The notes: generated by a model not told the origin, from the letters alone. A DNA stretch of 64,000 nt from Dysgonomonas sp. (GCA_047605185.1 JASGGC010000012.1:4630-68629); one strand, 5' to 3'; shown: positions 10,361 through 54,185, counted from the stretch's first letter. Made by a program: numbers and translations.

Positions 10361-10805
10361 AATAGATTTTTTCTATTTTGACATAAAAAGTTTCAATTTG
10401 TGTTTTGCAGAGTTTCCGCTATGTTTAAGTAGTATGGTTTTCTAAAAAAAGGAAAATTCTTTCAATTTCATTCCAGCTAAAGAAAAAAATGTCCCGATCT
10501 GTAAAAATCAATTTATAAGAGTTAGAAATGTAATGGGAAAATAGCCCTGTTTTTGAGCTCGTGGGATAAAAATAGTCTTTTTTATGAAAAAAAAGTTTTG
10601 AAAAGTTTTGATTTTATTTTGAATGTAACTATATTTAATCAAATAAAACAGATAACATTACTTTTACTTACGAATTTTCTTTCTTGAATGTTTTGGATAG
10701 AAAGAAAGATTATTTTAGAAGGCAGTTAAAACCAGCCTTTGTTCTAAGTCTTGAAATATGACTTAGTGGTGCATTAATAAATTAACCTAATACCGCCTAG
10801 TTACC

Positions 10806-12296
10806 ATGGAAGAAAAATTTATTTTAGCATTCGATGCCGGAACTACAAGCTCCCGAGCAATTGTATTTGACAAGCAGGGTAAGATTCGTTCTATTGCCCA
10901 AAAAGAATTTACTCAATACTTTCCACAAAGTGGTTGGGTTGAACATGATCCTCATGAGATTTGGTCGTCTCAGGCCTCTGTTGCTGCAGAAGCTATTACC
11001 AAGATTGGGATTAATGGAACAAATATTGCCGGAATTGGGATTACCAATCAGCGCGAAACAGTCGTTGTGTGGGATCGGACAACAGGAGAACCCGTTTATA
11101 ATGCTATTGTATGGCAGGATAGACGAACATCAGAATATTGTGACCAATTAAAAAATAATGGCTTAGTACAAACCATTCGTTCCAAGACAGGTCTGGTGAT
11201 AGATGCATATTTTAGTGCAACTAAAGTGAAATGGATCTTGGATAATGTAGAAGGAGCCAGAAAGAAAGCAGAAAAAGGAGAGTTGGCATTTGGTACAATC
11301 GATTCTTGGATAATTTGGCAGTTGACAAGAGGAGAGGTACATGTTACAGATGTTACTAATGCATCGCGTACTATGATGTATAATATTCATACTTTGGAGT
11401 GGGATGACGAACTATTGAAACTGTTCAATATTCCTAAAAGTATGTTACCTAAAGTTTGCTCTTCGAGTGAAATATACGGATATACTAAAACAACGATTTT
11501 TGCGTCGAAAGTGCCAATTGCTGGTATTGCCGGCGATCAACAAGCAGCCTTGTTCGGACAGATGTGTATTAAACCAGGTATGGTGAAAAACACTTATGGA
11601 ACAGGCTGTTTTATTTTGATGAATACAGGTGAAGAGCCGGTTGCTTCTAAAAATAACTTGATCACGACTATTGCATGGCAAGTCGGAGGGAAAACTTCGT
11701 ATGCATTAGAAGGTAGTGTATTTGTTGCCGGAGCCATTGTTCAATGGCTTAGAGACGGACTTAATATAATTAATTCCTCTTCGGAAATCGAAACCCTTGC
11801 ACGTCAGGTACCTGACTGTGGCGATGTCTACTTTGTGCCGGCACTCACCGGTTTAGGCGCTCCATATTGGGATCAATATGCAAGAGGCACATTGGTTGGA
11901 ATATCGAGAGGTACTACTGCCGCACATATTGCTAGAGCAGCACTCGAAGGGATTGCTTATCTTACATCCGATGTAATCAATGCTATGGTGTTGGATGCAG
12001 GTACAGGGTTGAAAGAACTGAGAGTTGATGGTGGTGCTTCTAGGAATGACTTGTTGATGGAGTTTCAATCGAATGTGTTGATGCAGAAGGTTATTCGTCC
12101 TCAAACTTCTGAAACTACAGCCTTAGGCGCAGCTTATCTTGCCGGACTTGCTGTTGGTTATTGGGATAGTCTGGAAGAAATAGAAAAACAATGGCATATT
12201 GATAAGACTTTCGAACCGGATGCAAATATTGATATGCAATTGAATAAACAAAAATGGACAAGTGCGGTTCAGCGATCCCAATCGTGGATAAAATAA
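10806..12296 (+). CDS. glpK: Glycerol kinase
   Basis: 496 aa with near-canonical GlpK motifs: [37 protein letters not shown] and [15 protein letters not shown]. Confidence 0.95.
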
Positions 12297-21708: not shown

Positions 21709-23739
21709 ATGGAAAAAGATAGAGTTATTGAGCATGCGGCTGATAATATTAGAATTTTATCCGCTGCAATGGTTGAAAAAGCAAAATCGGGACATCCTGG
21801 TGGAGCTATGGGTGGAGCTGATTTTATGAATGTTTTATATTCAGAATTTTTGGTTTATGACCCACAAAATCCTCAATGGGAACAGAGAGACCGTTTCTTT
21901 TTGGATGCAGGTCACATGTCGCCGATGTTATATTCTACGCTGGCTCTTGCCGGAAAATATACGGTAGAAGATTTGATGCAATTCCGCCAATGGGAAAGTG
22001 TTACTCCCGGGCATCCCGAATTAGATTTAAAGCATGGAATTGAAAATACCTCAGGTCCATTAGGACAAGGGCACGCTTATGGAGTAGGAGCAGCGATTGC
22101 AGCCAAATTCTTAAAATCCCGTATGGGTGATATAATGAGTCAGACGATTTATGCATATATTACCGACGGTGGTATACAGGAAGAAGTTTCGCAAGGAGCA
22201 GGGCGTATTGCCGGGCACTTAGGACTAGATAACCTGATAATGTTTTACGACTCTAATGGCATTCAACTTTCTACCGAAGTTAAAGAAGTGAATGAAGAAG
22301 ATGTTGTAGCCAAATATAAAGCTTGGGGTTGGGAAGTATTCGAAATAGACGGAAATAATACGAAACAAATTCGTGAAGCATTGACCAAAGCTAAAGCTGT
22401 GCAGGGAAAACCTACATTAATTATTGGAAATACGATAATGGGCAAAGGTGCAGTCGATGCTAACGGCGGCTCTTTCGAGAATAAGACTTCTACTCATGGA
22501 CAGCCGTTAAGTGCAGCCGGAGCCAGCTTCGAAAAAACTGTTGAAAACTTAGGAGGAGACCCACAGAAACCGTTTACTATCTTTGCCGAGGTGCAGGAGT
22601 TATACTCGAAACGTGCAGAGGAGTTGAAACATATAGTTGCAGAAAGAGAAAAAGAAAAAGCAGCTTGGGCAAAACAAAATCCGGACAAAGCAACCAAATT
22701 GAAAAAATGGTTTGCTAATGAAACTCCTGATATAGCTTGGGATAAAATACAGCAAAAAGCAAATGATGCCACTCGTAATGCTTCTGCCACAGTATTAGGG
22801 GCTCTGGCACAACAAGTGGAGAATATGATCGTGTCTTCTGCCGATTTATCTAATTCGGACAAAACGGATGGATTCTTAAAACATACACATAGTTTCAAGA
22901 AAGGAGACTTTTCAGGAGCATTCCTTCAAGCAGGTGTTGCTGAATTTACAATGGCATGTCTTTGTGTTGGTATGAGCCTTCATGGAGGGATCATTCCGGC
23001 TTGTGCAACATTCTTTGTCTTTTCTGACTATATGAAACCTGTTATCCGTGTCGCAGCATTGATGGAAAAACAAGTTGTATTTGTTTGGACACATGATGCA
23101 TTTAGAGTAGGTGAAGATGGGCCTACACACGAACCAGTGGAGCAGGAAGCACAAATCCGATTGATGGAGAAATTAAAAAACCATCATGGCAAAAATTCAA
23201 TGTTGGTATTACGTCCGGCAGATGTTCAGGAAACGACAGTTGCTTGGAAACTAGCTATCGAAAACAAAAACTCTCCGACTGGTTTAATTCTTTCCCGTCA
23301 GAACATAACAGACTTGCCATCGGCAGGCAATAGATATCAAGATGCTTTGCAAGCAGGCAAAGGCGCATATGTGGTGCAAGAAGAGAAAGATTATGATGTG
23401 ATTCTGGTAGCAACAGGCTCTGAAGTTTCAACATTGATTGAAGGTGCTGAATTGTTGAAGAAGGATAATATAAAGGCTCGCATCGTATCTGTACCGTCCG
23501 AAGGCTTATTCCGTTCTCAGCCGAAAGAATATCAAGAATCTGTTTTACCTAAAGGCAAAAAGAAATTTGGTCTTACAGCAGGTCTTCCTGTTAATCTGTT
23601 AGGATTAGTTGGTGACATTGATGCTATATGGGGCTTGGAATCGTTCGGATATTCTGCTCCATACAAGATTCTTGATGAGAAGTTGGGCTTTACTGCCGAC
23701 AATGTATGCAAACAAGTTAAAAAATATCTGGGGAAATGA
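21709..23739 (+). CDS. tkt: Transketolase
   Basis: 676 aa with motifs GHPGGAMG, the ThDP-binding region YITDGGIQEEVSQGA...FYDSNGIQ, and VWTHDAFRVGEDGPTHEPVEQ. Confidence 0.95.
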   Translation: MEKDRVIEHAADNIRILSAAMVEKAKSGHPGGAMGGADFMNVLYSEFLVYDPQNPQWEQRDRFFLDAGHMSPMLYSTLALAGKYTVEDLMQFRQWESVTPGHPELDLKHGIENTSGPLGQGHAYGVGAAIAAKFLKSRMGDIMSQTIYAYITDGGIQEEVSQGAGRIAGHLGLDNLIMFYDSNGIQLSTEVKEVNEEDVVAKYKAWGWEVFEIDGNNTKQIREALTKAKAVQGKPTLIIGNTIMGKGAVDANGGSFENKTSTHGQPLSAAGASFEKTVENLGGDPQKPFTIFAEVQELYSKRAEELKHIVAEREKEKAAWAKQNPDKATKLKKWFANETPDIAWDKIQQKANDATRNASATVLGALAQQVENMIVSSADLSNSDKTDGFLKHTHSFKKGDFSGAFLQAGVAEFTMACLCVGMSLHGGIIPACATFFVFSDYMKPVIRVAALMEKQVVFVWTHDAFRVGEDGPTHEPVEQEAQIRLMEKLKNHHGKNSMLVLRPADVQETTVAWKLAIENKNSPTGLILSRQNITDLPSAGNRYQDALQAGKGAYVVQEEKDYDVILVATGSEVSTLIEGAELLKKDNIKARIVSVPSEGLFRSQPKEYQESVLPKGKKKFGLTAGLPVNLLGLVGDIDAIWGLESFGYSAPYKILDEKLGFTADNVCKQVKKYLGK

Positions 23740-24203
23740 ATAAGCCAGATAAAGATTTAGTTTGTTTGTCAGGCAAGCCAGTAGGTCTTTGTTGTGATCA
23801 TGCCGGGTTCGAATTGAAACAATTTGTGATTAAATTGTTGTCGGACAATGGTATTGTATATGAGGATTTTGGTACATATACGGACGAGAGTTGCGACTAC
23901 GCTGATTATGCACATAAGCTGGCCAATGCTGTGGAGTCGGGTAAATGTTATCCCGGCATTGCAATTTGTGGTTCGGGTAATGGGATTAATATGACCCTCA
24001 ACAAGCATCAACTTATCCGTTCTGCATTGTGTTGGACAGCAGAATTGTCTCGCTTGTCCCGTGCTCATAATAATGCTAATATTCTCACCTTGCCGGCTCG
24101 GTTTATAACAGAGGAAGAGGCATATAAGGCTATAAAAACTTTTTTCGAAACTCCATTTGAAGGTGGAAGACATCAAAAAAGAATTGAAAAGATTCCAGTG
24201 TGA
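23736..24203 (+). CDS. rpiB: Ribose-5-phosphate isomerase B
   Basis: 155 aa with motifs CCDHAGFELK, ICGSGNGINMTLNK, HNNANILTLPARF and GGRHQKRI. Its ATG overlaps the tkt stop (ATGA). Confidence 0.85.
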   Translation: MNKPDKDLVCLSGKPVGLCCDHAGFELKQFVIKLLSDNGIVYEDFGTYTDESCDYADYAHKLANAVESGKCYPGIAICGSGNGINMTLNKHQLIRSALCWTAELSRLSRAHNNANILTLPARFITEEEAYKAIKTFFETPFEGGRHQKRIEKIPV

Positions 24204-24230
24204 TTTTAGAAATAGATAAAGTTTGATTAA

Positions 24231-24270
24231 AAGCAGGTTCCTTTGATGGGGCTTGCTTTTTGTTTTGAAT
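24231..24270 (+). terminator. Rho-independent terminator after rpiB
   Basis: agcaggttcc pairs with ggggcttgct (10 bp including G-U pairs, loop tttgat), followed by TTTTTGTTTT. Confidence 0.65.
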
Positions 24271-24282
24271 TAAAGTAGATAA

Positions 24283-24316
24283 ATAAAAAAACACTCAGGA
24301 GGCTAAACCCTGAGTG
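24283..24316 (-). terminator. Rho-independent terminator after the minus-strand RpiB/LacAB paralogue
   Basis: acactcagg (24290-24298) pairs with cctgagtgt (24308-24316). On the minus strand a run of 6-7 T follows. Confidence 0.8.
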
Positions 24317-24360
24317 TTTCTTTGTTGAGGTAACATAATAAATAAACTACCTAAATGTCA

Positions 24361-24822
24361 TTACTTTTTTAGGATTTCTTGCTCATATTCAGCTATTCGG
24401 TTTACCTTAGGTGTAGATCCTCCTCCGGCAAATTCGCTTTCTAACCAGATGTCCAATAGATTTTTAGCTAGTTCCAATCCAATAACACGCTCTCCGAAGC
24501 AAACGATTTGTGCATTGTTGCTTTTTCTTGCTCTTTGTGCCGAAAATGAATCGTGACATACCGCAGCTCGCACACCCGGAACTTTGTTTGCACACATACA
24601 TACGCCAAGTCCTGTTCCACACACAAGGACAGCCCGTTCAAACTCCTTGTTTGCCACAGCTTCGGCAACTTTGAATGCTACATCCGGATATAAAATTACT
24701 TCTCCCGATTCTGCACCGTAATCTGCAACTTCATAACCTTTTTCTTCCAAATGTTTCTTTAAAACTACTTTCATGTTGTAGGCTGCTTCATCACAACCTA
24801 TTGCAATTTTTTTCTTTTCCAT
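24361..24822 (-). CDS. RpiB/LacA/LacB-family sugar-phosphate isomerase (divergent second paralogue)
   Basis: 153 aa with motifs IAIGCDEAAY, LVCGTGLGVCMCANK and SNNAQIVCFGERV. Where rpiB has GGRHQKRI, this protein has GGGSTPKVNRI. Confidence 0.75.
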   Translation of the reverse strand: MEKKKIAIGCDEAAYNMKVVLKKHLEEKGYEVADYGAESGEVILYPDVAFKVAEAVANKEFERAVLVCGTGLGVCMCANKVPGVRAAVCHDSFSAQRARKSNNAQIVCFGERVIGLELAKNLLDIWLESEFAGGGSTPKVNRIAEYEQEILKK

Positions 24823-24972
24823 ATTCTATGTTTTGATTTATACTGTAATTCTTTCTATTCAGTTTCTGTTATTTCGGTTTTTTTATTTAAACCAATCTTG
24901 TGAAAACAAAAATAGAAATAATTCGGATAATTACATCAATAAATAGAAATAAATCGTAATATTTTATTTTCA

Positions 24973-24996
24973 TTCGAAATATTTAAGTCTTTCGAA
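24973..24996. promoter_or_regulatory. Candidate DeoR-type operator (TTCGAAA-N10-TTTCGAA) in the divergent rpiB2 / ribB-deoR promoter region
   Basis: ttcgaaatatttaagtctttcgaa. It has the same CGAAA-N10-TTTCG core and agtc spacer end as 5119..5140. Confidence 0.4.
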
Positions 24997-25101
24997 GTTT
25001 GCATTTGTTTCCTATTTCGCTTTGTAAAACTTTCTATTGAAAGTCTGGATTATCTCATAGTTTTATTATTATATTTGTATTTTATAGACAAAACATAAAA
25101 T

Positions 25102-25710
25102 ATGAATACAATAGAAGAGGCGTTAGAGGATATCCGCAAAGGGAAGTTGATAATCGTAGTAGATGATGAAAATAGGGAGAATGAAGGTGACTTTGTTGTG
25201 GCTGCCGAAAGAATAACTCCCGATACAGTTAACTTTATGTTACACCAAGGGCGAGGTATACTTTGTGTATCATTACCGGGCGAACGATGTGAAGAACTTC
25301 AATTGCCGATGATGGGAGAAGATAATACTTCACTGTTGGGTACTCCTTTTACCGTATCTGTCGATTTGATTCCGGGTTGTGCTACAGGAGTTTCCTCTAA
25401 AGAGCGTGCTGCTACAATCTATTCACTAGTAGATCCGGCAACTAAACCTTCAGACTTAGCCCGTCCGGGTCATATATTCCCATTACGAGCTTGCTCCGGA
25501 GGTGTCTTTGACAGAGAGGGACATACCGAAGCTGTAGTCGATTTGACAAGACTTGCCGGACTCAAACCGGGTGGGGCATTAATTGAAATTATGACAGAAG
25601 ATGGGGCTATGGCGCGTTTGCCTCAGTTGCAGGAAATTGCAAATAAATTCGATCTGAAGATTGTTTCAATCGCAGATTTGATAAAATACAGAAAGGCTAA
25701 TAATTTATAA
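25102..25710 (+). CDS. ribB: 3,4-dihydroxy-2-butanone-4-phosphate synthase (stand-alone, no GTP cyclohydrolase II domain)
   Basis: 202 aa. Full-length similarity to E. coli RibB includes [21 protein letters not shown] and EGHTEA. Confidence 0.9.
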
Positions 25711-25785: not shown

Positions 25786-26553
25786 ATGGGAAATATTGCA
25801 CAGCGACATAAGTATATTTTAGAGCAACTCAAAAAGGAAGATTACGTAAAAGTACAAGAACTGAGTAAAATCCTAAATGTATCAGAAGTTACAATCCGAA
25901 AGGATCTGAAATATTTGGAAGAAAAGAAAATGCTTTCCAGAAATCACGGGTCTGCAAGTAATGTTCTTACAATTATGCCCGATAGGCATATCGATGTAAA
26001 AGAAAAGATACAAGTTGATGAAAAATGTAGGATTGCTGCTGCTGCCAGAGATTTGATTGAAGTTAATGATCGGATTATAGTAGCATCCGGAACTACGACT
26101 TTGGCTTTTGCGAATGCTATAAATGAGTTGAATGTTCCTGTCTCGGTAATAACTCCTTCGGTAAAAGTTTCGTTAGCTTTGTGTTATAATCCAAATATTG
26201 AGATAATCCAATTGGGAGGAGTTATCAGAAAAAATGCAGCATCGGTAATAGGCAATGAGGCTGAAAGCATGTTGAAAGGAATATCTTGTAACAAACTATT
26301 TTTTGGAATTGATGGACTGGAATTAGACTATGGTTTGACAACTAGCAGTCTGAGTGAAGCTCATATTCATCAGCAAATGATTAACTGCTCACAGAAAATT
26401 ATTGTGCTGGTCGATTCTTCTAAATTTGGAAAACGTGGATTCTGTAAAATATGTAGTATAAATAAAGTGCATCAGATCATTACAGATTCGAATGCACCTA
26501 CTCATACTGTAAATGCTTTGAGAGAAAGTGGTATCGAAGTAACAATTGTTTAA
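25786..26553 (+). CDS. DeoR/GlpR-family transcriptional regulator
   Basis: 255 aa. It has an N-terminal wHTH (VKVQELSKILNVSEVTIRKDLKYLEE) and a C-terminal DeoR sugar-phosphate sensor domain. Confidence 0.9.
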   Translation: MGNIAQRHKYILEQLKKEDYVKVQELSKILNVSEVTIRKDLKYLEEKKMLSRNHGSASNVLTIMPDRHIDVKEKIQVDEKCRIAAAARDLIEVNDRIIVASGTTTLAFANAINELNVPVSVITPSVKVSLALCYNPNIEIIQLGGVIRKNAASVIGNEAESMLKGISCNKLFFGIDGLELDYGLTTSSLSEAHIHQQMINCSQKIIVLVDSSKFGKRGFCKICSINKVHQIITDSNAPTHTVNALRESGIEVTIV

Positions 26554-26574: not shown

Positions 26575-26612
26575 AAAAATCCTGCTAGATTCAAACTAGC
26601 AGGATTTTTTTT
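26575..26612. terminator. Bidirectional terminator between the DeoR gene and the OsmC-repeat gene
   Basis: aaaaatcctgctag pairs with ctagcaggattttt. An A-run precedes the hairpin and a T-run follows, and the flanking genes are convergent. Confidence 0.8.
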
Positions 26613-26638: not shown

Positions 26639-27904
26639 TTATTTACCGACTCTTACAATCTTTCCTTCTATTGTTTGCTCATCCTTTAATAAATTATAGA
26701 TAGGGCATACAGATTCTACCTTATCCCTAAGTTTTTCAATTTGGTCTATAGGAGCCGGAGATTTTACATGTACAGTATAATGAATGTCGTACGGATAACT
26801 TGGTGTTTTCTCAAAACCTGCACGTCCTGCACGTATATCTGTTGTGCCTTTTACACTAACTTCTAATGAATCGAGTGGAATTTCACCCGCTGCTGCCTGA
26901 ATAAGAAATATGTGTGTAAGGCAACTAGTTAAGACTCCTAACTGATGCTCTTTCGAGCTAGGACCTAAATCACTTCCGGCCAGATAGGTTGGATTATCGT
27001 GCAAAATCTGAAATTGTCTGATTTGCAAACGTCGAACGCCAGTCTTGCTATCTACTGTTATTATTGGACCTGTTGGCTCTTTTTCGCCTATTGTGATCGG
27101 GTTGTTTTTACGTTCCTCCTCTCTTTTCTGAGCTTCGGCTTGAAGATGCAGATAAGCAATCCGTTTATACTTCAAATATTCACGTAGACCCGGTTGCCCT
27201 CCTTCGGGAATTATAACTTCTTGGGGAGTTTGCTCATAGTTAATATCACCGGTTACTATTTGAGGTTTCTGTATAAAGTTGAATATGGCAGAATTTCTTT
27301 CTGCCGCTTGGCGGAGTTCCTCTAACTGTTCATCACTTGCAGACGATTTTATATAGGCTGTATATAAAAAGTTGCGAGGATAACTAACCCTATTAGTTGG
27401 TTCTGAATCGGGACGATTAATGATTTCAATTTTTAGTGAATCGAGCGGAATTCCTTTTATTGCTGCCTGATTCAGGTAGCTGTCAGCCAAATCACTGGCT
27501 ATGATTGCTACTTGCGACTCTGGCGATCCGGGTCCTAGGCTATAACCGGCAAAATTTGTTTCGCTGTCACTTATTATTTGAAATCCTCGAATACGTATCC
27601 TGCGTACACCAGCCCGTTGTTCTGCTGTTGTGCGTGCCTCCAATGTGATTGGTTGCAACTCGTTACTAGGCAGGCTTTGGAGTTGGAGGAGAGCTTTGCG
27701 TCTGTATAGCAAATGATCGTTGAGAGTAGGAACATTTTTTTTCGATTCTTCTTTAGCAGCCTCAGTTGTAAATATTGATTTTGGCTCGCCAGATACTATT
27801 GCACTTTTTTGAGCATATATATAATTAATCGGTAATGATCCTAGTAAGGCAAAGGTTAGGACTCCTCTTCGCAATGCTTTTTGATATTTAGATGAAAATC
27901 TCAT
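26639..27904 (-). CDS. Secreted protein with two tandem OsmC/Ohr-like domains
   Basis: 421 aa. The signal peptide is ...LLGSLPINYIYAQ with no lipobox Cys. There are two homologous halves, about residues 60-225 and 240-421. The C-terminal half has OsmC-like motifs with both cysteines (DLGPSSKEHQLGVLTSCLTH; VESVCPIYN). In the N-terminal half these positions read SLGPGSPESQVAIIASDLAD and ERNSAIFN, with no Cys. Confidence 0.7.
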   Translation of the reverse strand: MRFSSKYQKALRRGVLTFALLGSLPINYIYAQKSAIVSGEPKSIFTTEAAKEESKKNVPTLNDHLLYRRKALLQLQSLPSNELQPITLEARTTAEQRAGVRRIRIRGFQIISDSETNFAGYSLGPGSPESQVAIIASDLADSYLNQAAIKGIPLDSLKIEIINRPDSEPTNRVSYPRNFLYTAYIKSSASDEQLEELRQAAERNSAIFNFIQKPQIVTGDINYEQTPQEVIIPEGGQPGLREYLKYKRIAYLHLQAEAQKREEERKNNPITIGEKEPTGPIITVDSKTGVRRLQIRQFQILHDNPTYLAGSDLGPSSKEHQLGVLTSCLTHIFLIQAAAGEIPLDSLEVSVKGTTDIRAGRAGFEKTPSYPYDIHYTVHVKSPAPIDQIEKLRDKVESVCPIYNLLKDEQTIEGKIVRVGK

Positions 27905-27939
27905 AATATTCTATATTAAATTATTATTAGTAATTATTT

Positions 27940-29487
27940 TTATTGGAAACTCGCATATGGATTTGCTCCTGTTTTTGATTCCTCATAACCATCATATCCC
28001 CAGTTTTGCCACAAACCTTCCGGATTTATATTACGTTGTGATTGAGGGATCGGGAAGCGATAATTTTTAAGTTCTACAGTCTGTTTTTTGAATGCTTCGT
28101 CAACTCCAGATTCTTTCAATGTTTTTACGAAGATCTTCCATCTAACCAAATCGAGCCAGTGATTTTGTTCGTATGTTAACTCAAATACTCTTTCTGCTTG
28201 TATTGCTTTTTTAAACCCATCATAGTTCAGCCCTGAAGGGAGGTCGTCAGATGATGTTTGAGTGATAGGGAAGTGTCTGAATGCACGTCTGCGAACTTGG
28301 TTTATTGCTTCATATGCCTCAGAAGAAGGGCCGTTATTATATTCATTTATTGCTTCTGCTTTTATTAGGAGTACTTCTGCATATCGTAATATAGACCGGT
28401 TTATATTGCGATTACTTGCAGAGCCTAACGGATCACTTGTGTCAATATATTTCCGATAGCGGGGAAGTGTGAATGTAAATATTGTATTTGTAGCCGGGTT
28501 GTATAGCTCTTTGGCATATGTTCCGGTTTTTCTCTGGTCTTGATCGTCAAATGCATTATAAAACTTAATGTCAGAAATCAAGACATGTGGAGTAGAGTTG
28601 CTAAACCCGCTCGAAAATGCACAGTGTGCCAAGTGGTTTCCTCCACTGCCGTCTGTTGCTGTTGATAATGTATGTTGGGTAGAAAAAATACTTTCCTTTC
28701 CATTCTTATTATTTATATCCCAATTTGCAAGATAATCTTCTTCCAGCTCATATCCGGTTACATTGTTGGCAGCTTCAATCGCTTTCTGAAACTTTTCTTT
28801 CTTGGCTGTTGCACCACCCGTTTCGGAGGTCTGTCCCCATGTCAAATAGACTTTTGAAAGCAGGGTATAGGCTGCACCTCTGCTAGCCCTTCCTTTGTCG
28901 CTGTCTGCATAATTGGCTACATCTGGTAAATTTTCTGTTGCGTTTTTTAGATCTGTTACAATTTGTGTATACACATCATCTACAGCAGCTCGTGTAGTTC
29001 CGGTCCCATCTATATTGTGTAGAATCAGAGGTACTTCTCCCCAGAATTGAACAGCATAGAAATAGTAATAAGCTCTAAGAAACTGTGCTTCACCAATTGA
29101 TCGTTTTTTTATTGATTCGGATACGGTACTTGATTCCGACAATTTATCTATAACGTCATTTGCACTCGTGATACCTACATATAGGGCTGTCCATACAGAT
29201 GTTACATAACTATTGGTCGGTTCCCATTGCATAAGTCCCAGCAATCCACCTCCACTATTTGGGTTTTCACCTGATACGGTAGTTTCTGTTGTTAGGTCTG
29301 TCATATAGCCAAGGGCGGTGCTAATACCTACATTTGGGGCATATACACCATTGGAAAGTGCAATGGCGTCATCATCTGTTACAGGGAAATTTCCTCCCAT
29401 CAGTTTGCCAATGGGTGTCACATCGAGACTGTCACTGCATGATAGCAGTGTTACTGATAAAATCAGAATATATAATAACCTTTTCAT
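27940..29487 (-). CDS. SusD/RagB-family nutrient-binding outer-membrane lipoprotein
   Basis: 515 aa with the lipobox LLSC followed by acidic residues (SDSLD). SusD-like segments are FLRAYYYFYAVQFWGEVPL and RYAEVLLIKAEA. It lies directly downstream of SusC. Confidence 0.9.
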   Translation of the reverse strand: MKRLLYILILSVTLLSCSDSLDVTPIGKLMGGNFPVTDDDAIALSNGVYAPNVGISTALGYMTDLTTETTVSGENPNSGGGLLGLMQWEPTNSYVTSVWTALYVGITSANDVIDKLSESSTVSESIKKRSIGEAQFLRAYYYFYAVQFWGEVPLILHNIDGTGTTRAAVDDVYTQIVTDLKNATENLPDVANYADSDKGRASRGAAYTLLSKVYLTWGQTSETGGATAKKEKFQKAIEAANNVTGYELEEDYLANWDINNKNGKESIFSTQHTLSTATDGSGGNHLAHCAFSSGFSNSTPHVLISDIKFYNAFDDQDQRKTGTYAKELYNPATNTIFTFTLPRYRKYIDTSDPLGSASNRNINRSILRYAEVLLIKAEAINEYNNGPSSEAYEAINQVRRRAFRHFPITQTSSDDLPSGLNYDGFKKAIQAERVFELTYEQNHWLDLVRWKIFVKTLKESGVDEAFKKQTVELKNYRFPIPQSQRNINPEGLWQNWGYDGYEESKTGANPYASFQ

Positions 29488-29523
29488 TGTCTTTTTGTCT
29501 TTATGTTTATTATATCTATGTGA

Positions 29524-32500
29524 TTAATATGCAATATTTACTCCGAAAGAGAATGTTTTTGCAGTAGGATATGCACCGGCATCTATGCCACTCGAAATTT
29601 CAGGGTCATAGCCTGTATATTTAGTGAATGTCAATAAATTTTGACCGGTTGCAAATACCTTGAATTTTGTTTGAGGAGCTTTTGCTATCTTGATAGGAAG
29701 AATGTAGCTTAATGTTACATTCTTGAGACGCAAATAGGATGCATCTTCAATATAACGGCTATCTAACCAAGTGGAAGATGTTACAGAAGCTTTTGCAATA
29801 GTGTTCGATGGATTGTCGGCTGTCCATCTGTTAACAAGGCTTGCCGAAACATTGTAACTGGTAGATGGAGATTCTAAATCTTGTCTCAGAAGATTGCATA
29901 TCTGATTACCTTTGCTGCCTTGAAATGCAGCAAACAGGCTTAACGATTTATATCGTAATGTTGTAGAAAAGCCATATGTAAAATCCGGTTGGATTGAACC
30001 TAATACAACTCGGTCTTCATCTTGGGTGATTTTTCCGTCTTTGTTCTGATCTACATATTTTACATCGCCTGGCTCCACATTAGTCTTCCAACTTGGAACC
30101 GGAACTTTCGATATGTCATCACCTTCTTGTACTATTCCATCAAAAACAACTCCATAGAAAGACCCCAGCGATTCGCCTTTTTTTACAATTGTGTTTCCCG
30201 AAAGGAAATAGTCCAGATTGCCAATGTCGGTTATCTCATTTTTATTTGTTGCAATATTTGCAGACAAGTTCCATTCCAGATTTTTTGTTTCGATAATATT
30301 TCCTGCTACACTAAACTCGATTCCTTTATTAGTAACATTACCCACATTTTTTAGCATAGTACTGAATCCGCTTGTTATTTCGACAGGTACATCCAATAGT
30401 AGGTCTGTTGTTTTCTTGTAATAAACATCGGCAACAAATCCTAATCTGCGATCGAAGAGGTTTAAATCGAAACCTACATTATATTGGGAAGTTTGTTCCC
30501 ATTTTAGGTCTGGATTTTCAGCATTCGATCTGGCATAAGCTGTTACAAGTTGATTGTTGAACGAATATGTTTTTGTTGTATATGTCGCTTCATATCTATA
30601 ATCTCCAATCTCCTGATTCCCTACTGTACCTAAACTACCTCTTAATTTCAAGTCATTGATTGTTTTATTGTTTTTCAGAAATGATTCTTCGCTCGCATTC
30701 CATGATAATCCTATCGAAGGAAAATACCCCCATTTGTGATCTTTTGCAAAGCGCGAAGAACCGTCGGCTCTCAATGTTGCTGTCAAATTATACTTGCTAC
30801 GGAACGAATAGTTTACTCTACCTAATACCGAATTAAGAATTGATTCAGAACCTCCCGAACTAGGAGATATCAATGTAGAACCTCCTTGAAGATTATGATA
30901 GGATAATTGCTCATTTGCAAAATTGCTAGCTGATGCTATGGCGTACTCTATATTGGTAGTCTGAGTAGTGTATCCCCCTAAGATGTCGAAGAAATGATCA
31001 TTATTCAACTTTTTTGTATAGTTGAGGGTGTATTCGAACTGCCATGAGTCTGATCTTCTGTTGGCTATACTTCCATATCCTTTAGAAAGGAAACCCGGAG
31101 CAGAAGATGACGGAGCAAAGAAATTCTGGGTTGTATTGATAAGATTTGTACCAGCACTGAATTTTGCCACAAGTGATGGTATGATCGTATATTTTGCAAA
31201 AAAGCTACCAATCACTGTATTGTTTTTTGTTTGCGAAACAGTGTTGTTCAAGTCAGATATAGCATTTACTGTACGGTCTCCAAATCGTAAGTCACCTTTT
31301 TCGAAAAGGTTATTGTAGTTATAACTTCCATCTGCATTGTATATAGAAACCACTTGCGGTATTCGCAATACATAATCGAGCGAGTTAGATACTCCGTTAA
31401 CATATAGACCTGTATAATCACTCAAGCCATTCTGCTCCATTTTTCCGGCTGTGACATTGAGCCCGATTGTTAAGTTCGAGAACAAATCCCGCTCAAAATT
31501 GAAACGTCCACTATAGCGTTTGAAGTTCGTATTTAGCAAGATACCATCTTGGTCACTATAGTTTCCGGATAGTAAATATCTGGTTTTCTCGTCACCGCCA
31601 CTGATCGATAATTGATGATTTTGAGTTGTGGCTGTACGCAATGCTGCATCTTGCCAATTTGTACCTTCTCCAAGTTGTGCTACCTTATCAGCAGTTAATC
31701 CGGTTTCACTGATATTATCTTTCGATGCTATTTCCAGATACAATTCGCCCCATTCTTTGGCATTCATTAAATCCAGTTTCTTTCGTGCCCATTGCCATCC
31801 GATAGAGTATTGGTATTCGATATTGGTTTTCCCTTTTTTACCACTTTTTGTCGTGATTATAATTACTCCATTTGCACCTCGTGAACCATAAATGGCTGAA
31901 GCAGAAACGTCTTTGAGTACTTCAATCGATTCAATATCATTCGGATTTAATGCTGCCAATGGATTTAGTGCTCCACCCGAACGGCTGATTCCTATATTAT
32001 TTGTCGAATTGTCATTGTATATAATTACTCCGTCAATAACATATAGCGGTTCATTCCCTCCATTAATAGAGTTTCCTCCACGGATACGGATATTTGAGGT
32101 TGCTCCCGGTTGTCCTGAACTTTGAGACACGTTTAGTCCTGAGACAGCTCCACCTAATAATCCATCGAAAGATGTTGATAGTTGTGATAATGAGCCTTTT
32201 GGTATGGACGAAATAGCTCCTGTCAGTTCTTTTCTTTTTTGTGTACCATACCCAACTACCACTACTTCATTTAGATAGTTTAGATCTTCAGATAGAGTGA
32301 TAATGATAGGTTCCGTTGCTTCATAAATATCTATCTCTTGGTCTTTGAAACCGACCAGTTTAACAGATAAGGTAATTGGCAATGCTTCGCGTATGGTAAA
32401 TGAAAAGCTACCATCTATATCTGTAATACTACCTTGTGTGGTTGATTTTAGAGCTACTGATGCACCTACCAAAGGTTCTTTGGTTCTCTCATCAAGTACA

Positions 32501-32628
32501 TGTCCGTTGATGATTGTTTGACTGTATAAACTACCGGAAAACAATAGTATGCCTAATGTTACAAAAATATGTTTGTTAACATATGATAATTGTTTCCTCG
32601 TTCTGAGAAATCTGATTATATTTATCAT
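29524..32628 (-). CDS. SusC/RagA-family TonB-dependent outer-membrane transporter (no STN domain)
   Basis: The track ORF begins at a TTG (32658). I place the start at ATG 32628 (MINIIRFLRT...). It has a carboxypeptidase-regulatory-like domain (INGHVLDERTKEPLVGASVALK..TDIDGSFSF), a plug (VVVGYGTQKRKELTGAIS) and a C-terminal ...GVNIAY. Confidence 0.9.
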   Translation of the reverse strand: MINIIRFLRTRKQLSYVNKHIFVTLGILLFSGSLYSQTIINGHVLDERTKEPLVGASVALKSTTQGSITDIDGSFSFTIREALPITLSVKLVGFKDQEIDIYEATEPIIITLSEDLNYLNEVVVVGYGTQKRKELTGAISSIPKGSLSQLSTSFDGLLGGAVSGLNVSQSSGQPGATSNIRIRGGNSINGGNEPLYVIDGVIIYNDNSTNNIGISRSGGALNPLAALNPNDIESIEVLKDVSASAIYGSRGANGVIIITTKSGKKGKTNIEYQYSIGWQWARKKLDLMNAKEWGELYLEIASKDNISETGLTADKVAQLGEGTNWQDAALRTATTQNHQLSISGGDEKTRYLLSGNYSDQDGILLNTNFKRYSGRFNFERDLFSNLTIGLNVTAGKMEQNGLSDYTGLYVNGVSNSLDYVLRIPQVVSIYNADGSYNYNNLFEKGDLRFGDRTVNAISDLNNTVSQTKNNTVIGSFFAKYTIIPSLVAKFSAGTNLINTTQNFFAPSSSAPGFLSKGYGSIANRRSDSWQFEYTLNYTKKLNNDHFFDILGGYTTQTTNIEYAIASASNFANEQLSYHNLQGGSTLISPSSGGSESILNSVLGRVNYSFRSKYNLTATLRADGSSRFAKDHKWGYFPSIGLSWNASEESFLKNNKTINDLKLRGSLGTVGNQEIGDYRYEATYTTKTYSFNNQLVTAYARSNAENPDLKWEQTSQYNVGFDLNLFDRRLGFVADVYYKKTTDLLLDVPVEITSGFSTMLKNVGNVTNKGIEFSVAGNIIETKNLEWNLSANIATNKNEITDIGNLDYFLSGNTIVKKGESLGSFYGVVFDGIVQEGDDISKVPVPSWKTNVEPGDVKYVDQNKDGKITQDEDRVVLGSIQPDFTYGFSTTLRYKSLSLFAAFQGSKGNQICNLLRQDLESPSTSYNVSASLVNRWTADNPSNTIAKASVTSSTWLDSRYIEDASYLRLKNVTLSYILPIKIAKAPQTKFKVFATGQNLLTFTKYTGYDPEISSGIDAGAYPTAKTFSFGVNIAY

Positions 32629-33265
32629 AACTTTTTTAATGAGCACTTCCAATACCAATTGCCAGCGGAGGAGGAAGTGTTTGTTTTTTATAAACTATTC
32701 TATAAGATTACGTCTCCTTTCCCTTCAAATTTTATTCAAAGAGTACTTGTTGTTTGAGTAAGAAGATGTTTTGTATCGAAGCTAATGTATAGATATCAAT
32801 CAGCTTTGATTTGGGGTGAGTGGAATTAGCGAAAACACATTCGCATTCGAAGAAGGAGATGGGTCGGATTAGAAACTCTCGATAAATGAGAATTTGATAT
32901 GCTGCCTGCATATTGCTTTGTTTCGGAAAAATGCCTTCGGAAGCCAGTTTTCAACTTGATTAACTGTGTCATTGTCTGTCTTATTTAAAATTAGTTTTTT
33001 TGTGTGATAAAATTAAGGCATTTTAACTTGTTTCGAAATACCATAAATGCGGTATATTTTATTCTATTGCTAATATATTTTTAGCAAAGACTTTGTTTGT
33101 AGGACTTTATTATTTAATCATTAAGATTTTAATTAAACAGATATATTCAAATAAGGCTTATGAAAATTTTTATTGTACAATTCGTCTGATTTATACATTG
33201 AAAGGTAATAAATTATATTTGGCTGGCTTCATAGATTAGCTAGTATTTGATAAAATATTTTCATT

Positions 33266-34150
33266 TTATTCAACCCATGTTATTTGCGAGGATTGTATGA
33301 TCCACTTATCCTCTTCTTTTTTTAAGATTGCTTCTCCCCCTTCGTATACAATTCTAAAATATATTTTTGCATACTGCATTTCTTTGTCAAAAATGATAAT
33401 TTGGACTTCTGGGTAAGTAATCAATTGCCAGTAAGCACCCCAATGGCCTTTATATATTTTGATTTTATGTTCTAAAAATTTCTTTCTTGAATTGATTGTT
33501 TTAAGTGGTAAATAGGTAGTGTAGTGAAGCCTTTCATTGTTTCTGTCAATCTGACTGCCTAAAAAAAATGTCAACTCTATTTCATATGGTAAAGTAAGGT
33601 ATACAGCCTTTTGTTTATTTGTAAATGATATATCTGGTCTAAACTCTGCTATAGTATCAATAAATAAAAAATCATTTCCGTATAATTCTTCTACATCCCG
33701 ATCTTCTTCTGGAAATTGGGACAAGGATAGCCTTAGAATGTCAAGACTGTCTTTTCCGTACTTTGATAGGAGTTCTTCATAAATAGTCTTTTTTTCATCA
33801 ATAGTATAATAAACTTTATTTTGAATTCGAATTGGTAATTTGGGTTGTATAATCAAATAGCTTACATTCTTATATCTGTCGTCATTTGATTCTAGTTTGT
33901 CAATATTATTTAATCTAGAATTATAAAAAGCTTTGAATACATTATATGCTTCTTTTGATGTGTCAGATAAATTGAGAAATTGGTTGTCTGAGATTGGTGG
34001 TATTTCACGTCTCCATAACTCGAAAAAATCATCAAGTTTTTTTTGAGATTTTTCCTTATATGCTTCATCCAATAATGTAAACTGTGAGAACGCTTGATTA
34101 GTGATAGTTATAGATAGCACTAAGAGGAAACATATTTTTTTTATAAACAT
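33266..34150 (-). CDS. Hypothetical secreted protein
   Basis: 294 aa with signal peptide MFIKKICFLLVLSITITNQAFSQ. I recognised no family. The region is AT-rich. Confidence 0.6.
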   Translation of the reverse strand: MFIKKICFLLVLSITITNQAFSQFTLLDEAYKEKSQKKLDDFFELWRREIPPISDNQFLNLSDTSKEAYNVFKAFYNSRLNNIDKLESNDDRYKNVSYLIIQPKLPIRIQNKVYYTIDEKKTIYEELLSKYGKDSLDILRLSLSQFPEEDRDVEELYGNDFLFIDTIAEFRPDISFTNKQKAVYLTLPYEIELTFFLGSQIDRNNERLHYTTYLPLKTINSRKKFLEHKIKIYKGHWGAYWQLITYPEVQIIIFDKEMQYAKIYFRIVYEGGEAILKKEEDKWIIQSSQITWVE

Positions 34151-34335: not shown

Positions 34336-36291
34336 TCAACATAATTGATTATCAATAGATAGCTCTACAGTTGTTTGATCTTCTTGTTGACTGACAGATA
34401 TTTTTCCATTGATGGCCTGAGAAAAATCGTAAATTAATCGTAAGCCCAAGCCATCCGACGAAGAATAATCGAGACGATTTCCAATAAGTGAGTCGATCAC
34501 TTTTTGGCTCATTTCAGGCCCATTATTCGATACTCGAAAACAGATTCTACCTTCAGAGGCTGATATCTGACATAATACTTTTTGTGGATTCTCACTCTCA
34601 GATGCTTTTAAGCTATTGCTGATAAGATTGCGCAAAATTGTTTTTAAATAGTTAAACTCTGTCGTTATTTCAAAATCACTGTTGTAGTTGAATGTGATCT
34701 TATCGTTATTGTTGAAGAATATCTTTAACTCTTCATATAGTTTGGATACTTTAAATGTAGATAACGACAACGAGTAATTAGACATTATATTCTTACTCCA
34801 TTGCAAAAGGTCTTCCATGCTGAATAGTAGATTTTCTGTCATTTGCATAGCTTGTTTATTCAGTTTTAGCATTTCATCAGACGATACATCATCCGATGAG
34901 AGAACATTTTTGATTTGCAAGAAACCTATTAGACTGGCTACCGGTTGCCTTAAGTCGTGATTGATAATCCCAAGAATTTGGTTTTTAATCGAATTAGATT
35001 CAGTTAAATCCTTATTCAGTATCTGAAGTTGTTTGTTATTCTTTTTTTGCTTGTATATGAATATAACTAACATTACAAGTATGATTGTCGATAAGATGAT
35101 ACTGATATAATACATCTTTATCTCATTCTCCTTATTCTTTAATCTTTCTGCTGATAATTGTAATTCATATTCGTGTTTTTCTTCCTGTTGCTTGAGTTCC
35201 AGAGTAGTTATCTTATTTTGATTTTCTCTAGTAAATATATGAGTGTATGATGATGTTAATTTCTCCAGATTTTCTAACGATTTTTCAAAGTTACCTTCCA
35301 TCTTATACACCTCATAAGCAAAAACATAATTATTTATTATTATACTCGAGTCTCGTGCTATTGCATCTTTGTCATTAGATGACTTTTCGATATAGTACTT
35401 CGCTTTTTCTAAATATTTTTTTCTTTGATTGTAGGATGAATAATGTTTCGCTGTACTTGTATAAGCATTAATAATTGTATTATATAGAAAAGGTTTACTT
35501 TCGTTAGGCGCTTTTTCTAATGCATTCTCTATTTGTGTTATGTATCCGTTGATAAGTTCAGGACTCTCTCCGGCTGCAACAAGGCTCCCGACTACTGCTG
35601 CTGACATATTCAGTTGTATTGCTTTATTTTTCAGAGGCGTTGTATCTTGTTGCATTTTATCTACAGCTTTTTGATAATATTCAGCAGCTTTCTTGTGCTC
35701 CCCTTGCTGTTTGTATATGTCAGCTACAAAACTCAATGCAAGCCCCTGAATATAAGGAGATTCTTTCTCTGACTCTTTGATAGCCTCATTGGCATATTTG
35801 AATGCAATATCATACTCTTTCTCCATGATGTAGATTGATATAATCATCGAATAGGCTTTAAAAACATAGAGGGTGGTACTTTTATTTTTCCTGCTGTGCT
35901 TCATTGATAAAAAGAAGTTTTCCAAAGCCTTGGGAGGGTTGGGACTTGTTTTAAAATAATAATGACCCAATTTATAATAAGCTTCGCTTAATCCTTTATC
36001 CCAATTCGCTTTTTTAGCTAATTCAATAGCCTTTAGGGTATTCTCTTTATATACTTCGGGATCAGGATTCGTTTGATTTTGAAAGTCGGCCAGCATAAGG
36101 TATATGTTAGCTTTTGTAGTATCATCTTTTGCCAAAGCGAGAGAATTCTGAAGCGAGTCGCGACGTTGTATTACCTCTGATTGGGCGTATAATGGTTGAA
36201 TAAAAATCCCTATAAAAAGTATAGATAATAAGACTATTCTTTGTATTCCTTTACTTTTAATATGAAACTTGATTGAGCTATTTATTTTCAT
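34336..36291 (-). CDS. Sensor histidine kinase with N-terminal TPR-like repeats
   Basis: 651 aa. It has an N-terminal signal/TM segment, a repetitive TPR-like region of about 350 aa, a coiled coil and a TM segment (ISIILSTIILVMLVIFIY). The kinase boxes are an H-box INHDLRQPV, an N-box NLISNSLKAS and a G-box DGLGLRLI. Confidence 0.85.
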   Translation of the reverse strand: MKINSSIKFHIKSKGIQRIVLLSILFIGIFIQPLYAQSEVIQRRDSLQNSLALAKDDTTKANIYLMLADFQNQTNPDPEVYKENTLKAIELAKKANWDKGLSEAYYKLGHYYFKTSPNPPKALENFFLSMKHSRKNKSTTLYVFKAYSMIISIYIMEKEYDIAFKYANEAIKESEKESPYIQGLALSFVADIYKQQGEHKKAAEYYQKAVDKMQQDTTPLKNKAIQLNMSAAVVGSLVAAGESPELINGYITQIENALEKAPNESKPFLYNTIINAYTSTAKHYSSYNQRKKYLEKAKYYIEKSSNDKDAIARDSSIIINNYVFAYEVYKMEGNFEKSLENLEKLTSSYTHIFTRENQNKITTLELKQQEEKHEYELQLSAERLKNKENEIKMYYISIILSTIILVMLVIFIYKQKKNNKQLQILNKDLTESNSIKNQILGIINHDLRQPVASLIGFLQIKNVLSSDDVSSDEMLKLNKQAMQMTENLLFSMEDLLQWSKNIMSNYSLSLSTFKVSKLYEELKIFFNNNDKITFNYNSDFEITTEFNYLKTILRNLISNSLKASESENPQKVLCQISASEGRICFRVSNNGPEMSQKVIDSLIGNRLDYSSSDGLGLRLIYDFSQAINGKISVSQQEDQTTVELSIDNQLC

Positions 36292-36293
36292 TT

Positions 36294-36992
36294 TTATGTT
36301 ATACTATTTGTATCTATATCGTCAACTATTGATTGTCGATAGATTCGCCCTAGTGGCAATGAAGAACCATCTATAAGAACTATTTGATTATATTTGATTG
36401 ACTTTATATATACTCGTTGTACAGCATAACTCTTATGGATTCGAAGTAGTGTGTGGTAAGGCTCCGAGCGTAAGATGGAAGCTAAATTACCATGTATTGT
36501 TGTTGATGTTTTATTTAGATAAATAATCTTTGTATAATCTTTCATAGCCTCCATATATAAGATGTCGGAGATGTCAATTGCTCCTACCTGTTGTATATTC
36601 AGATCAAATAGCTTTGCTTTGTTATTAGCATCAAGGAAGTTCTTAGCGTACAATACCGTTTCGTTCAGAGCTTCTACTCTTATCGGTTTTGTCAAATAAT
36701 CGAGAGCTTTCAGTTTGAATCCGTCAAGTGCATAGCTGTTATATGCAGATATTAATATCGGGCAGGTAACCTTACTGCGTATTGTTTCTAATAGAGTCAG
36801 TCCATCTATATCAGGCATCCTAATATCACAAAACATAAGATCTACCTGCTTGTTTTTGAGAAAATCTAAAGCAGCTTGTCCAGAAGAGAAAGAGCCCAGA
36901 TGTACTAAGAAAGGATATTTCTTTAAATGTAAATTCAGGAATATCCTATCTAGATCATTATCATCTACAATAATAAAAGAATATGTTTTCAT
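36294..36992 (-). CDS. LytTR-family response regulator
   Basis: 232 aa. The receiver domain has FIIVDDN...DLMFCDIRMPDIDG. The C-terminal LytTR DNA-binding domain has LLRIHKSYAV. Its stop lies 2 nt from the kinase ATG. Confidence 0.9.
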   Translation of the reverse strand: MKTYSFIIVDDNDLDRIFLNLHLKKYPFLVHLGSFSSGQAALDFLKNKQVDLMFCDIRMPDIDGLTLLETIRSKVTCPILISAYNSYALDGFKLKALDYLTKPIRVEALNETVLYAKNFLDANNKAKLFDLNIQQVGAIDISDILYMEAMKDYTKIIYLNKTSTTIHGNLASILRSEPYHTLLRIHKSYAVQRVYIKSIKYNQIVLIDGSSLPLGRIYRQSIVDDIDTNSIT

Positions 36993-39705: not shown

Positions 39706-39780
39706 TCGGGATAGCGGGATTCGAACCCACGACCCCCTGCTCCCAAAGCAGGTGCGCTAACCGGACTGCGCTACATCCCG
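39706..39780 (-). tRNA. tRNA-Pro (anticodon TGG)
   Basis: The minus-strand sequence CGGGATGTAGCGCAGTCCGGTTAGCGCACCTGCTTTGGGAGCAGGGGGTCGTGGGTTCGAATCCCGCTATCCCGA folds by hand into a cloverleaf. It has a 7-bp acceptor stem, a GCGC D-stem, an anticodon stem CCTGC/GCAGG with loop TTTGGGA, and a T-arm GTGGG-TTCGAAT-CCCGC. CCA is not encoded. Confidence 0.9.
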
Positions 39781-46914: not shown

Positions 46915-46947
46915 TATTATAATTGATTAATACAGGTTAAATTTAAA

Positions 46948-46990
46948 AATATTGGCTCTTGTTTAAGTATATAAACAAGAAGCCAATATT
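46948..46990 (-). terminator. Terminator between the glutaminase-like gene and the GH127-like gene
   Basis: A stem of about 18 bp, aatattggctcttgttta / taaacaagaagccaatatt, with a one-nt bulge. On the minus strand TTTTTAAATTT follows. Confidence 0.7.
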
Positions 46991-47023
46991 AAACTTACAT
47001 ATTATTACCGAATCTGTACTTCC

Positions 47024-54180: not shown

Positions 54181-54185
54181 ATTAT

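Follow-up and report, generated by a model that had tools for sequence, protein, structure and literature searches.

SusCD transporters have been studied almost wholly as importers of glycans, and few non-glycan cargoes are known for them (peptides, B12, haem and siderophores). A stretch of 64,000 nucleotides from Dysgonomonas sp. (GCA_047605185.1 JASGGC010000012.1:4630-68629), referred to here in its full length as the window, carries between positions 26,639 and 32,628 a SusC/SusD pair followed by a single further gene, which encodes a putatively secreted protein made of two OsmC-like halves. What such a pair imports, and what a protein of a redox-type family contributes to it, is the question that this locus raises. 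The components are of known kinds; what is undescribed is the fused, exported form with one site, its fixed partnership with a TonB-dependent transporter (TBDT) and its descent from OsmC-like proteins of sulfur-gene clusters. A full-text literature search returned no description of a tandem or an exported OsmC protein, nor of OsmC together with SusCD or a TBDT, which agrees with the novelty that an earlier note on this DNA had claimed for the SusCD-OsmC module.

The tandem OsmC-like protein

The third gene of the group (26639-27904, minus strand) encodes 421 amino acids plus the stop codon, and the whole protein matches the Pfam OsmC profile (PF02566) with 63.9 bits, against a cutoff of 27.5, in two stretches. 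Its N-terminal half comprises residues ~57-231 (27212-27736, minus strand) and its C-terminal half residues 232-421 (26642-27211, minus strand). Searched alone, the C-terminal half passes the profile with 50.2 bits, while the N-terminal half, at 18.9 bits and E = 0.002, stays under the gathering score, yet it is homologous to its partner: the two halves align with 36% identity and E = 3e-32 (BLASTP). The profile match that the earlier note had asked for in each half was thus obtained for the C-terminal one only, but the fold that it had proposed for both was recovered by structure. An AlphaFold2 model built on an alignment of 76 sequences reached a mean predicted local distance difference test score (pLDDT) of 89.1 and a predicted template modelling score (pTM) of 0.85, with uncertainty confined to residues 1-39. 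Each half runs through an N-terminal helix, beta1-3, a long helix, beta4-5, two helices and beta6, which is the element order of the OsmC fold, and Foldseek searches against the PDB returned at probability 1.0 OsmC-like proteins only (2opl, 1lql, 6mjn, and Ohr and OsmC entries). The model implies a fixed mutual packing of the halves, and because its pTM of 0.85 spans the whole chain we infer a single-chain pseudo-dimer, as had been suggested from the sequence.

The candidate active site lies in the C-terminal half, where Cys328 (26921-26923) and Cys400 (26705-26707) show no variation in either of two family alignments, of 20 and 76 members. The N-terminal half contains no cysteines; there, Cys328 aligns with Asp138 (27491-27493) and Cys400 with Ser205 (27290-27292), in the segment NS-AIFN; of the Asp and Ala replacements reported earlier, the Asp stands, but the second cysteine has a Ser and not an Ala as its counterpart. 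Arg291 and Glu319 of the C-terminal half, and Arg101 and Glu129 of the N-terminal half, are conserved at alignable positions. The Arg, Glu, Cys and Cys columns are kept in all C-terminal halves and in all single-domain relatives examined. N-terminal halves keep the Arg in every instance and have Ser throughout at the second Cys position; the first Cys position is Asp in Bacteroidota and Ala in the tandem proteins from outside Bacteroidota. The two-cysteine feature is therefore present in one half and missing from the other, giving a single Cys-Cys site per chain. The same two alignments show Asp138, Ser205, Arg101, Gly99, Asp113 and many other residues of the N-terminal half to be invariant too, and this half is as conserved as the C-terminal one. 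The description of the protein as half-degenerate does not fit such a pattern, which suggests that the second site was rebuilt and then held fixed, not abandoned.

Compared with the Ohr/OsmC peroxidases (PF02566; Escherichia coli OsmC 1nye, Xylella/Pseudomonas Ohr 1zb9/4xx2), each half has the common fold, and the C-terminal half has the helix-1 Cys, the Cys of the V-C-P motif, and the Arg and Glu at alignable positions. The functional unit of Ohr and OsmC consists of two intertwined units, which are here fused in one chain. Those enzymes are organised as homodimers of cytoplasmic subunits of ~140 aa each, with lipoyl proteins or thioredoxin as reductants, whereas the protein of the window is a 421-aa chain with a signal peptide, one Cys site rather than two, and a gene coupled to a TBDT. 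The best structural and sequence neighbours are instead GSU2788-type 2opl (~185 aa) and the "OsmC-related (seleno)protein" family NF041052, in which an N-terminal helix likewise precedes the OsmC core. In 2opl a Ser occupies the second Cys position (YSPVYN), as in the N-terminal half (NSAIFN), and the Glu-to-Cys spacing is nine residues, as in the window protein; in Ohr and OsmC it is presumably 10. Proteins of the 2opl/NF041052 type, which we take to be cytoplasmic, are single-domain, unlike the tandem protein, and a match of 56 bits, under the cutoff of 95, places the window protein outside NF041052.

At its N-terminus the protein has a basic n-region, a hydrophobic core and an IYA/QK cleavage site with Gln at +1, which we read as a signal-peptidase-I signal covering residues 1-31 (27812-27904, minus strand), in keeping with the export proposed earlier. 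Given this putative site, and with neither a lipobox nor a type IX secretion system (T9SS) C-terminal domain in the window copy, the latter should be periplasmic. Of the two locations that the earlier note had left open, the periplasm is thus suggested and the cell surface is unlikely for this copy, and we regard a periplasmic pseudo-dimer with one site as a quite likely description of the mature protein. Relatives differ in this respect: ~40% are lipoproteins by a loose lipobox pattern (..SC/) that occurs in 33 of 76. A few of these matches look spurious, at least three true lipoboxes are missed by the pattern, and the remaining relatives have mostly A/Q signals. Single-domain relatives have no signal peptide. 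Several Proteobacterial tandem proteins (among those of loci L025, L027, L029 and L032) begin with n-regions rich in Arg (RQRRLL, RRVLL, RKRFL, RRRSW), reminiscent of twin-arginine (Tat) signals; if they are such signals, export of an already folded protein would follow there. Outside the Dysgonomonas clade, many of the tandem proteins carry a conserved C-terminal tail of 15-18 residues, NPDxYRxHPQxxYxYK[DE] (for instance P0023, P0026, P0040, P0056 and P0097), which is absent from the window protein.

A word-indexed search found 374 homologues. The best 120 of these are ~350-510 aa long (most 400-460), all tandem and all from Bacteroidales and relatives, and they are named, if at all, only "OsmC family protein" or "uncharacterized OsmC-like protein". 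The closest tandem relatives, at 69-72% identity, belong to Dysgonomonas gadei and D. termitidis. Over 1.84 billion cluster representatives, phmmer gave only 455 hits at E <= 1e-3, of which 26 reached E <= 1e-30. No NCBIfam model was passed by the tandem protein or by its single-domain relatives, and a sequence search of the PDB returned no characterised close relative, only 2opl (E = 0.0015) and 9wo1 (E = 0.011). By these searches, it appears to be a small subfamily, far in sequence from mainstream Ohr and OsmC.

The members fall into three groups: tandem proteins of Bacteroidota; tandem proteins of Lysobacteraceae, Caulobacter, Sphingopyxis, Stakelama, Sphingobium and Acidobacteria; and single-domain proteins of ~180-210 aa in Streptomyces, Paenibacillus, Burkholderia/Paraburkholderia, Chloroflexia and others. 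When the tandem proteins were split and their halves aligned with the single-domain proteins, the N-terminal halves of Bacteroidota and of the other tandem proteins shared a mean identity of 41%, N-terminal and C-terminal halves 28-31%, and C-terminal halves and single-domain proteins 42-44%. Because N-terminal halves resemble each other across phyla more than they resemble C-terminal halves, these values indicate a single fusion event that would predate the spread between phyla. The probable ancestor is a cytoplasmic, homodimeric, two-cysteine OsmC-like protein that underwent one ancient duplication and fusion.

A partnership with TonB-dependent transporters

In the window, the genes for SusC (29524-32628), SusD (27940-29487) and the tandem OsmC-like protein lie head to tail on the minus strand, separated by AT-rich gaps of 36 nt (SusC to SusD) and 35 nt (SusD to OsmC). 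Neither gap contains a hairpin or terminator. The first such element is a bidirectional intrinsic terminator at 26575-26609, a palindrome (AAAAATCCTGCTAG-N7-CTAGCAGGATTTTT) with a perfect 14-bp stem and A and T runs on its sides, which starts 29 bases beyond the tandem OsmC stop codon. It also faces a convergent DeoR-family gene (25786-26553, plus strand), and by its structure it can presumably end transcription of both. The operon-like layout proposed earlier, including the terminal palindrome, is confirmed.

The SusC-type TBDT has 1034 aa when read from the ATG at 32628. A longer open reading frame (ORF) is possible from a TTG at 32658, but the ATG is the more plausible start, since the product then begins with a normal signal peptide (MINIIRFLRTRK). 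It carries the SusC signatures TIGR04056 (885.3 bits, cutoff 368) and TIGR04057 (63.5 bits, cutoff 46.2), with CarbopepD_reg_2 and Plug (59.3 bits) domains; the profile scan detected no STN domain in it, as the earlier note had stated. SusD, a lipoprotein lid of 515 aa in the SusD/RagB family, has both domains of its family (SusD_RagB, PF07980, 100.9 bits; SusD-like_3, PF14322, 96.7 bits), a lipobox read from sequence as LLSC/SDSLD, and a gene placed directly 3' of that for SusC. SusC and SusD are 84% and 82% identical to their orthologues in D. gadei. Similarity to solved SusC proteins was uninformative as to cargo: the closest is 8aa4 (E = 4e-159, 535 bits), which we take to be a glycan utilisome, and RagA comes second (353 bits), both being distant.

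The surroundings of the family were compared in one genome per GTDB species, a scan that gave 146 loci, of which 80 were kept. By tblastn with SusC and SusD of the window and by ORF clustering, SusC, SusD and the tandem OsmC gene are colinear and co-oriented in 22 of the 23 Bacteroidota loci that have 4 kb or more of upstream sequence (L001-L009, L012-L015, L017, L019-L022, L035, L081 and L082, plus L016, where four genes intervene), the exception being L010; in L018 a SusCD pair lies downstream instead. The conserving loci span Bacteroidales and Marinilabiliales. SusC and SusD are orthologous in most of them, at 55-84% identity, and the pairing holds in L009, L017 and L021 despite a SusCD pair of another lineage (29-35% identity). 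In five Proteobacterial loci (Lysobacteraceae, Caulobacter, Sphingopyxis, Stakelama and Sphingobium), a classical TBDT of 946-972 aa, with Plug and barrel, is encoded directly upstream on the same strand, and these orthologous transporters are 64-68% identical to each other. The genes that flank the operon in the window (DeoR, RibB, a 294-aa ORF, a tetratricopeptide repeat (TPR) histidine kinase and LytTR) are not conserved beside the module elsewhere, so the conserved unit appears to be the transporter plus the tandem OsmC protein. Judged from gene order, this partnership recurs in many genomes and in three phyla, the conservation that the earlier note had asked for.

A rival reading is that the OsmC gene is an independent stress gene that follows SusCD by chance. 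In its favour, co-transcription is read from the layout, and weak sigma-70-like matches are scattered throughout the AT-rich DNA of the window. The gaps of 35-36 nt without a terminator speak against chance adjacency, however, as do the recurrence of the same order in more than 20 genomes with differing flanks and the pairing, in Proteobacteria, of the tandem OsmC protein with a TBDT that is not a SusC. We find chance adjacency scarcely credible, and hold it nearly certain that the module is a real functional unit.

A shared upstream element was also found. The 13-mer ATGCGAATGTGTT (32834-32846, minus strand), preceded by a TTCTTC-rich stretch, lies ~205 nt 5' of the SusC ATG and occurs once in the window. 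It heads the orthologous operons at L001:4016, L002:3932, L003:3932, L005:3952, L009:3078, L012:2525 and L017:2432, exact except for one mismatch each in L009 and L017, which with the window makes eight genomes; by our own estimate, chance alone would give ~0.04 matches. A second copy is present in L005 at 18456, towards the end of the locus. The 13-mer is a candidate, and probable, operator or promoter sequence for the operon. Rfam scans of the window and 15 related loci returned tRNAs only, the tRNA gene at 39706-39780 (minus strand) being the sole match of the window at gathering thresholds. As to a conserved regulator of the module, the DeoR, TPR histidine kinase and LytTR candidates were rejected, none being conserved beside it. 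In L025 (Lysobacteraceae), a distant LytTR-type regulator (10349-10903; 24% identity, E = 9e-11) is encoded just 3' of the tandem OsmC gene.

Further features of the window lie on either side. Upstream of the operon are the secreted 294-aa ORF, which has no family match (33266-34150, minus strand), and further upstream the TPR histidine kinase with a LytTR response regulator (34336-36992, minus strand). Beyond the terminator, the DeoR-family regulator is flanked by pentose-phosphate and riboflavin-type genes (21709-25710), named from their translations: lengths and sequences suggest a transketolase (676 aa), a pair of RpiB/LacAB-type isomerases (155 and 153 aa) and, at 202 aa, a RibB-like 3,4-dihydroxy-2-butanone-4-phosphate synthase.

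Neighbouring genes and the cargo

A polysaccharide utilisation locus (PUL) joins a SusCD pair to carbohydrate-active enzymes (CAZymes) and, as a rule, to a glycan sensor, either HTCS or an ECF sigma/anti-sigma pair with an STN-bearing SusC. The present locus differs: there is no CAZyme, no STN domain and, in the window, no glycoside hydrolase or peptidase attached to the operon. Since a canonical PUL (44863-59897, minus strand) lies 12 kb away in the same window, this contrast is internal to the genome. That PUL encodes, all on the minus strand, an extracytoplasmic function (ECF) sigma factor (59301-59897), a FecR anti-sigma factor (58224-59261), an STN-bearing SusC (54186-57650), SusD (52318-54180), GH2 (49545-51353), a GtaA-like/DUF4964/DUF5127 protein (47024-49528) and a GH127 beta-L-arabinofuranosidase-like protein (44863-46914). 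The non-glycan substrate proposed earlier is supported. The nearest conceptual relative among non-glycan SusCD systems, though not a close one, is the peptide importer RagAB of Porphyromonas gingivalis (6sli), likewise a SusC/SusD pair without CAZymes or STN; we know of no OsmC partner for it.

That the OsmC-like protein is the only cargo gene, with no peptidase attached, is true of the window and of L004, L006, L020 and L081, which have the module in this minimal form, but not of the module at large. An S9 peptidase gene (PF00326) directly follows the OsmC gene in at least 13 loci, and its family is found in 14 loci, 13 of them of Bacteroidota. Other recurrent Bacteroidota neighbours are a secreted M20 amidohydrolase (TIGR01891, 252 bits), an M14 carboxypeptidase, an SDF symporter, an APC amino-acid permease and a pyridoxal phosphate (PLP) enzyme of Cys/Met metabolism from the methionine-gamma-lyase/cystathionine family (PF01053 Cys_Met_Meta_PP, 410 bits). 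In L082, the order is SusC-SusD-M20-OsmC2-Cys_Met_Meta_PP, and in L011 a tricorn-type S41 protease adjoins. No CAZyme was found among the annotated recurrent neighbour families of related loci. Such peptidase-rich neighbourhoods suggest a peptide-like cargo, as for RagAB. In six loci (L007:2861-3898, L009, L012, L017, L020 and L022), a protein cluster of 310-345 aa with a signal peptide, c13, is encoded between the conserved 13-mer and SusC. Pfam has no match for it, and it gave only sub-threshold hints of PstS (PDB 8ods, E = 0.74; TIGR00975, E = 0.007); conceivably, the module gains a further binding component with it.

Outside Bacteroidota, the Sphingopyxis locus encodes a MetQ/NlpA-type binding protein, flavin mononucleotide (FMN) monooxygenases of the NtaA/DmoA family and a CmcJ-like oxidoreductase, and the Caulobacter locus a cystine-type ATP-binding cassette (ABC) binding protein with its permease and a ResA/TlpA-like thiol-disulfide oxidoreductase. 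Loci of the single-domain relatives contain SfnB-family sulfur-acquisition oxidoreductases (562 bits, above the cutoff), NtaA/DmoA monooxygenases (559 bits), other luciferase-like monooxygenases, SsuA-family and SBP_bac_5 binding proteins with ABC parts, AhpD/CMD and CysK. The contexts of all three forms of the protein appear to point to a common theme of sulfur-containing amino acids, peptides or organosulfur compounds, and the balance tips slightly towards a link of the module to sulfur or peptide nutrients.

The presence of binding proteins bears on the possibility that the tandem OsmC protein is itself a non-catalytic cargo receiver in the periplasm, which would bind the ligand, possibly as a transient mixed disulfide with Cys328 or in the Asp138/Ser205 pocket, and pass it to an inner-membrane transporter, much like the periplasmic binding proteins of other TBDT systems. 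A gene directly 3' of the TBDT occupies the usual place of a binding protein, the family, like binding proteins, includes both soluble and lipoprotein members, and an N-terminal pocket that is invariant without a cysteine suggests a conserved non-redox site. No C-terminal half has lost either cysteine, the Arg or the Glu, however, which argues for a catalytic role, and Proteobacterial loci already have separate MetQ-type and cystine-type binding proteins. We know of no OsmC-fold protein that serves as a transport binding protein, and judge the receiver role distinctly unlikely.

OsmC and Ohr proteins have been tied to sulfur acquisition before. Under sulfur limitation, osmC is the most induced gene of SAR11 and lies behind a SAM-V riboswitch (PMC5069961), and in sulfur-starved Pseudomonas aeruginosa ohr is induced >40-fold, which the authors read as antioxidant defence (PMC12581299). 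The P. aeruginosa Ohr/LsfA and SAR11 OsmC proteins, from gene sets that are induced by sulfate starvation and include antioxidant proteins, resemble the relatives described here in this tie to sulfur (PMC12581299, PMC5069961); they are cytoplasmic, presumably members of canonical subfamilies, and have a regulatory link, whereas the present protein is fused and exported and is linked to an importer by gene adjacency, with no riboswitch.

The antioxidant reading has its counterpart at this locus, namely a periplasmic organic-hydroperoxide peroxidase for envelope defence, with SusCD importing or exposing oxidised lipophilic compounds. Such a role is consistent with the full Ohr/OsmC set kept in the C-terminal half (Arg, Glu, helix-1 Cys and VCP resolving Cys) and with Ohr and OsmC peroxidases as structural neighbours, and the co-induction of Ohr and other antioxidants with sulfur scavenging (PMC12581299) could explain the context of the cytoplasmic relatives without any sulfur chemistry. 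A general defence enzyme would, however, have no cause to stay tied to one TBDT lineage over three phyla. Among the recurrent neighbours there is no gene of lipid metabolism or for a stress regulator (OhrR, OxyR), many of the hosts are strict anaerobes of termite guts, and the lipoylated proteins known to reduce Ohr reside in the cytoplasm. We consider this peroxidase role unlikely; nor does any neighbour point to the oxidised lipid or organic hydroperoxide that the earlier note had offered as cargo, the recurrent ones pointing to sulfur-containing amino acids or peptides instead.

A putative sulfur route and its meaning

Tentatively, then, and at a little short of even confidence, we favour a SusCD importer of a sulfur-containing, non-glycan nutrient, supplied with a dedicated, exported redox partner that has one site. 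After the fusion, one site would have kept Arg291, Glu319, Cys328 and Cys400, and the other would have been remodelled to Asp138/Ser205 and fixed. The nutrient that SusCD would import is small and not a glycan; a peptide or amino-acid derivative that contains sulfur is the most likely candidate. Once it is in the periplasm, an oxidised group on or near it (a disulfide, sulfoxide or hydroperoxide) would be attacked by the thiolate of Cys328, and Cys400, by analogy with Ohr and OsmC, would resolve the intermediate into an intramolecular disulfide, from which a periplasmic thioredoxin-like reductant would recycle the enzyme. In related genomes, periplasmic S9, M20 and M14 peptidases may trim the product, SDF or APC permeases may take it up, and a cytoplasmic methionine-gamma-lyase-family enzyme may free the sulfur. 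Anatomy, fold, the two-site conservation pattern, export signals and the cross-phylum TBDT linkage are observed features of the module; cargo, reductant and periplasmic location belong to the proposal, as does the chemistry, which is modelled on thiolate attack and second-Cys resolution in Ohr/OsmC. We consider any one specific reaction unlikely at best.

Several points weigh against this proposal. The activity known for OsmC/Ohr enzymes is that of a peroxidase and not the reduction of disulfides or sulfoxides, and both the proximity of Cys328 to Cys400 and the make-up of their site are deduced rather than seen. The sulfur link is guilt by association and comes from other genomes: in the window, no peptidase, sulfur-metabolism gene or reductant adjoins the operon, tblastn with the recurrent neighbours detected no peptidase or sulfur gene elsewhere in the window either, and a thioredoxin-like neighbour is present in one locus only (L027). 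No riboswitch, SAM (S-adenosylmethionine) classes included, was detected at Rfam gathering thresholds in any leader of the window, eight Bacteroidota and seven non-Bacteroidota loci. The Acidobacterial loci L026, L028 and L033, as well as L030, have no adjacent TBDT. Finally, the sulfur clustering of the cytoplasmic relatives could mean antioxidant protection, not sulfur chemistry.

A broader extension of the sulfur proposal is possible but doubtful, namely that TBDT and tandem OsmC form an unrecognised outer-membrane sulfur route in multiple phyla, in which a periplasmic OsmC-fold reductase would convert oxidised or disulfide organosulfur compounds into a transportable thiol or thioether. The link between this subfamily and sulfur genes recurs in Actinobacteria, Firmicutes, Chloroflexi, Proteobacteria and Bacteroidota, which suggests a role in organosulfur use. 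For the SusCD field, a compact, conserved module with a redox-type protein as its sole constant partner offers a clean entry to a new class of cargo, and the hypothesis is open to direct tests in cultured hosts (D. gadei ATCC BAA-286 and D. termitidis). The OsmC/Ohr family, for its part, gains a natural pseudo-dimer with one site kept and the other rebuilt and fixed, and an OsmC fold outside the cytoplasm raises the question of its reductant there. If true, the sulfur route would give the OsmC fold a nutritional role other than that of a peroxidase and would help to explain the supply of reduced sulfur to dependent Bacteroidales.

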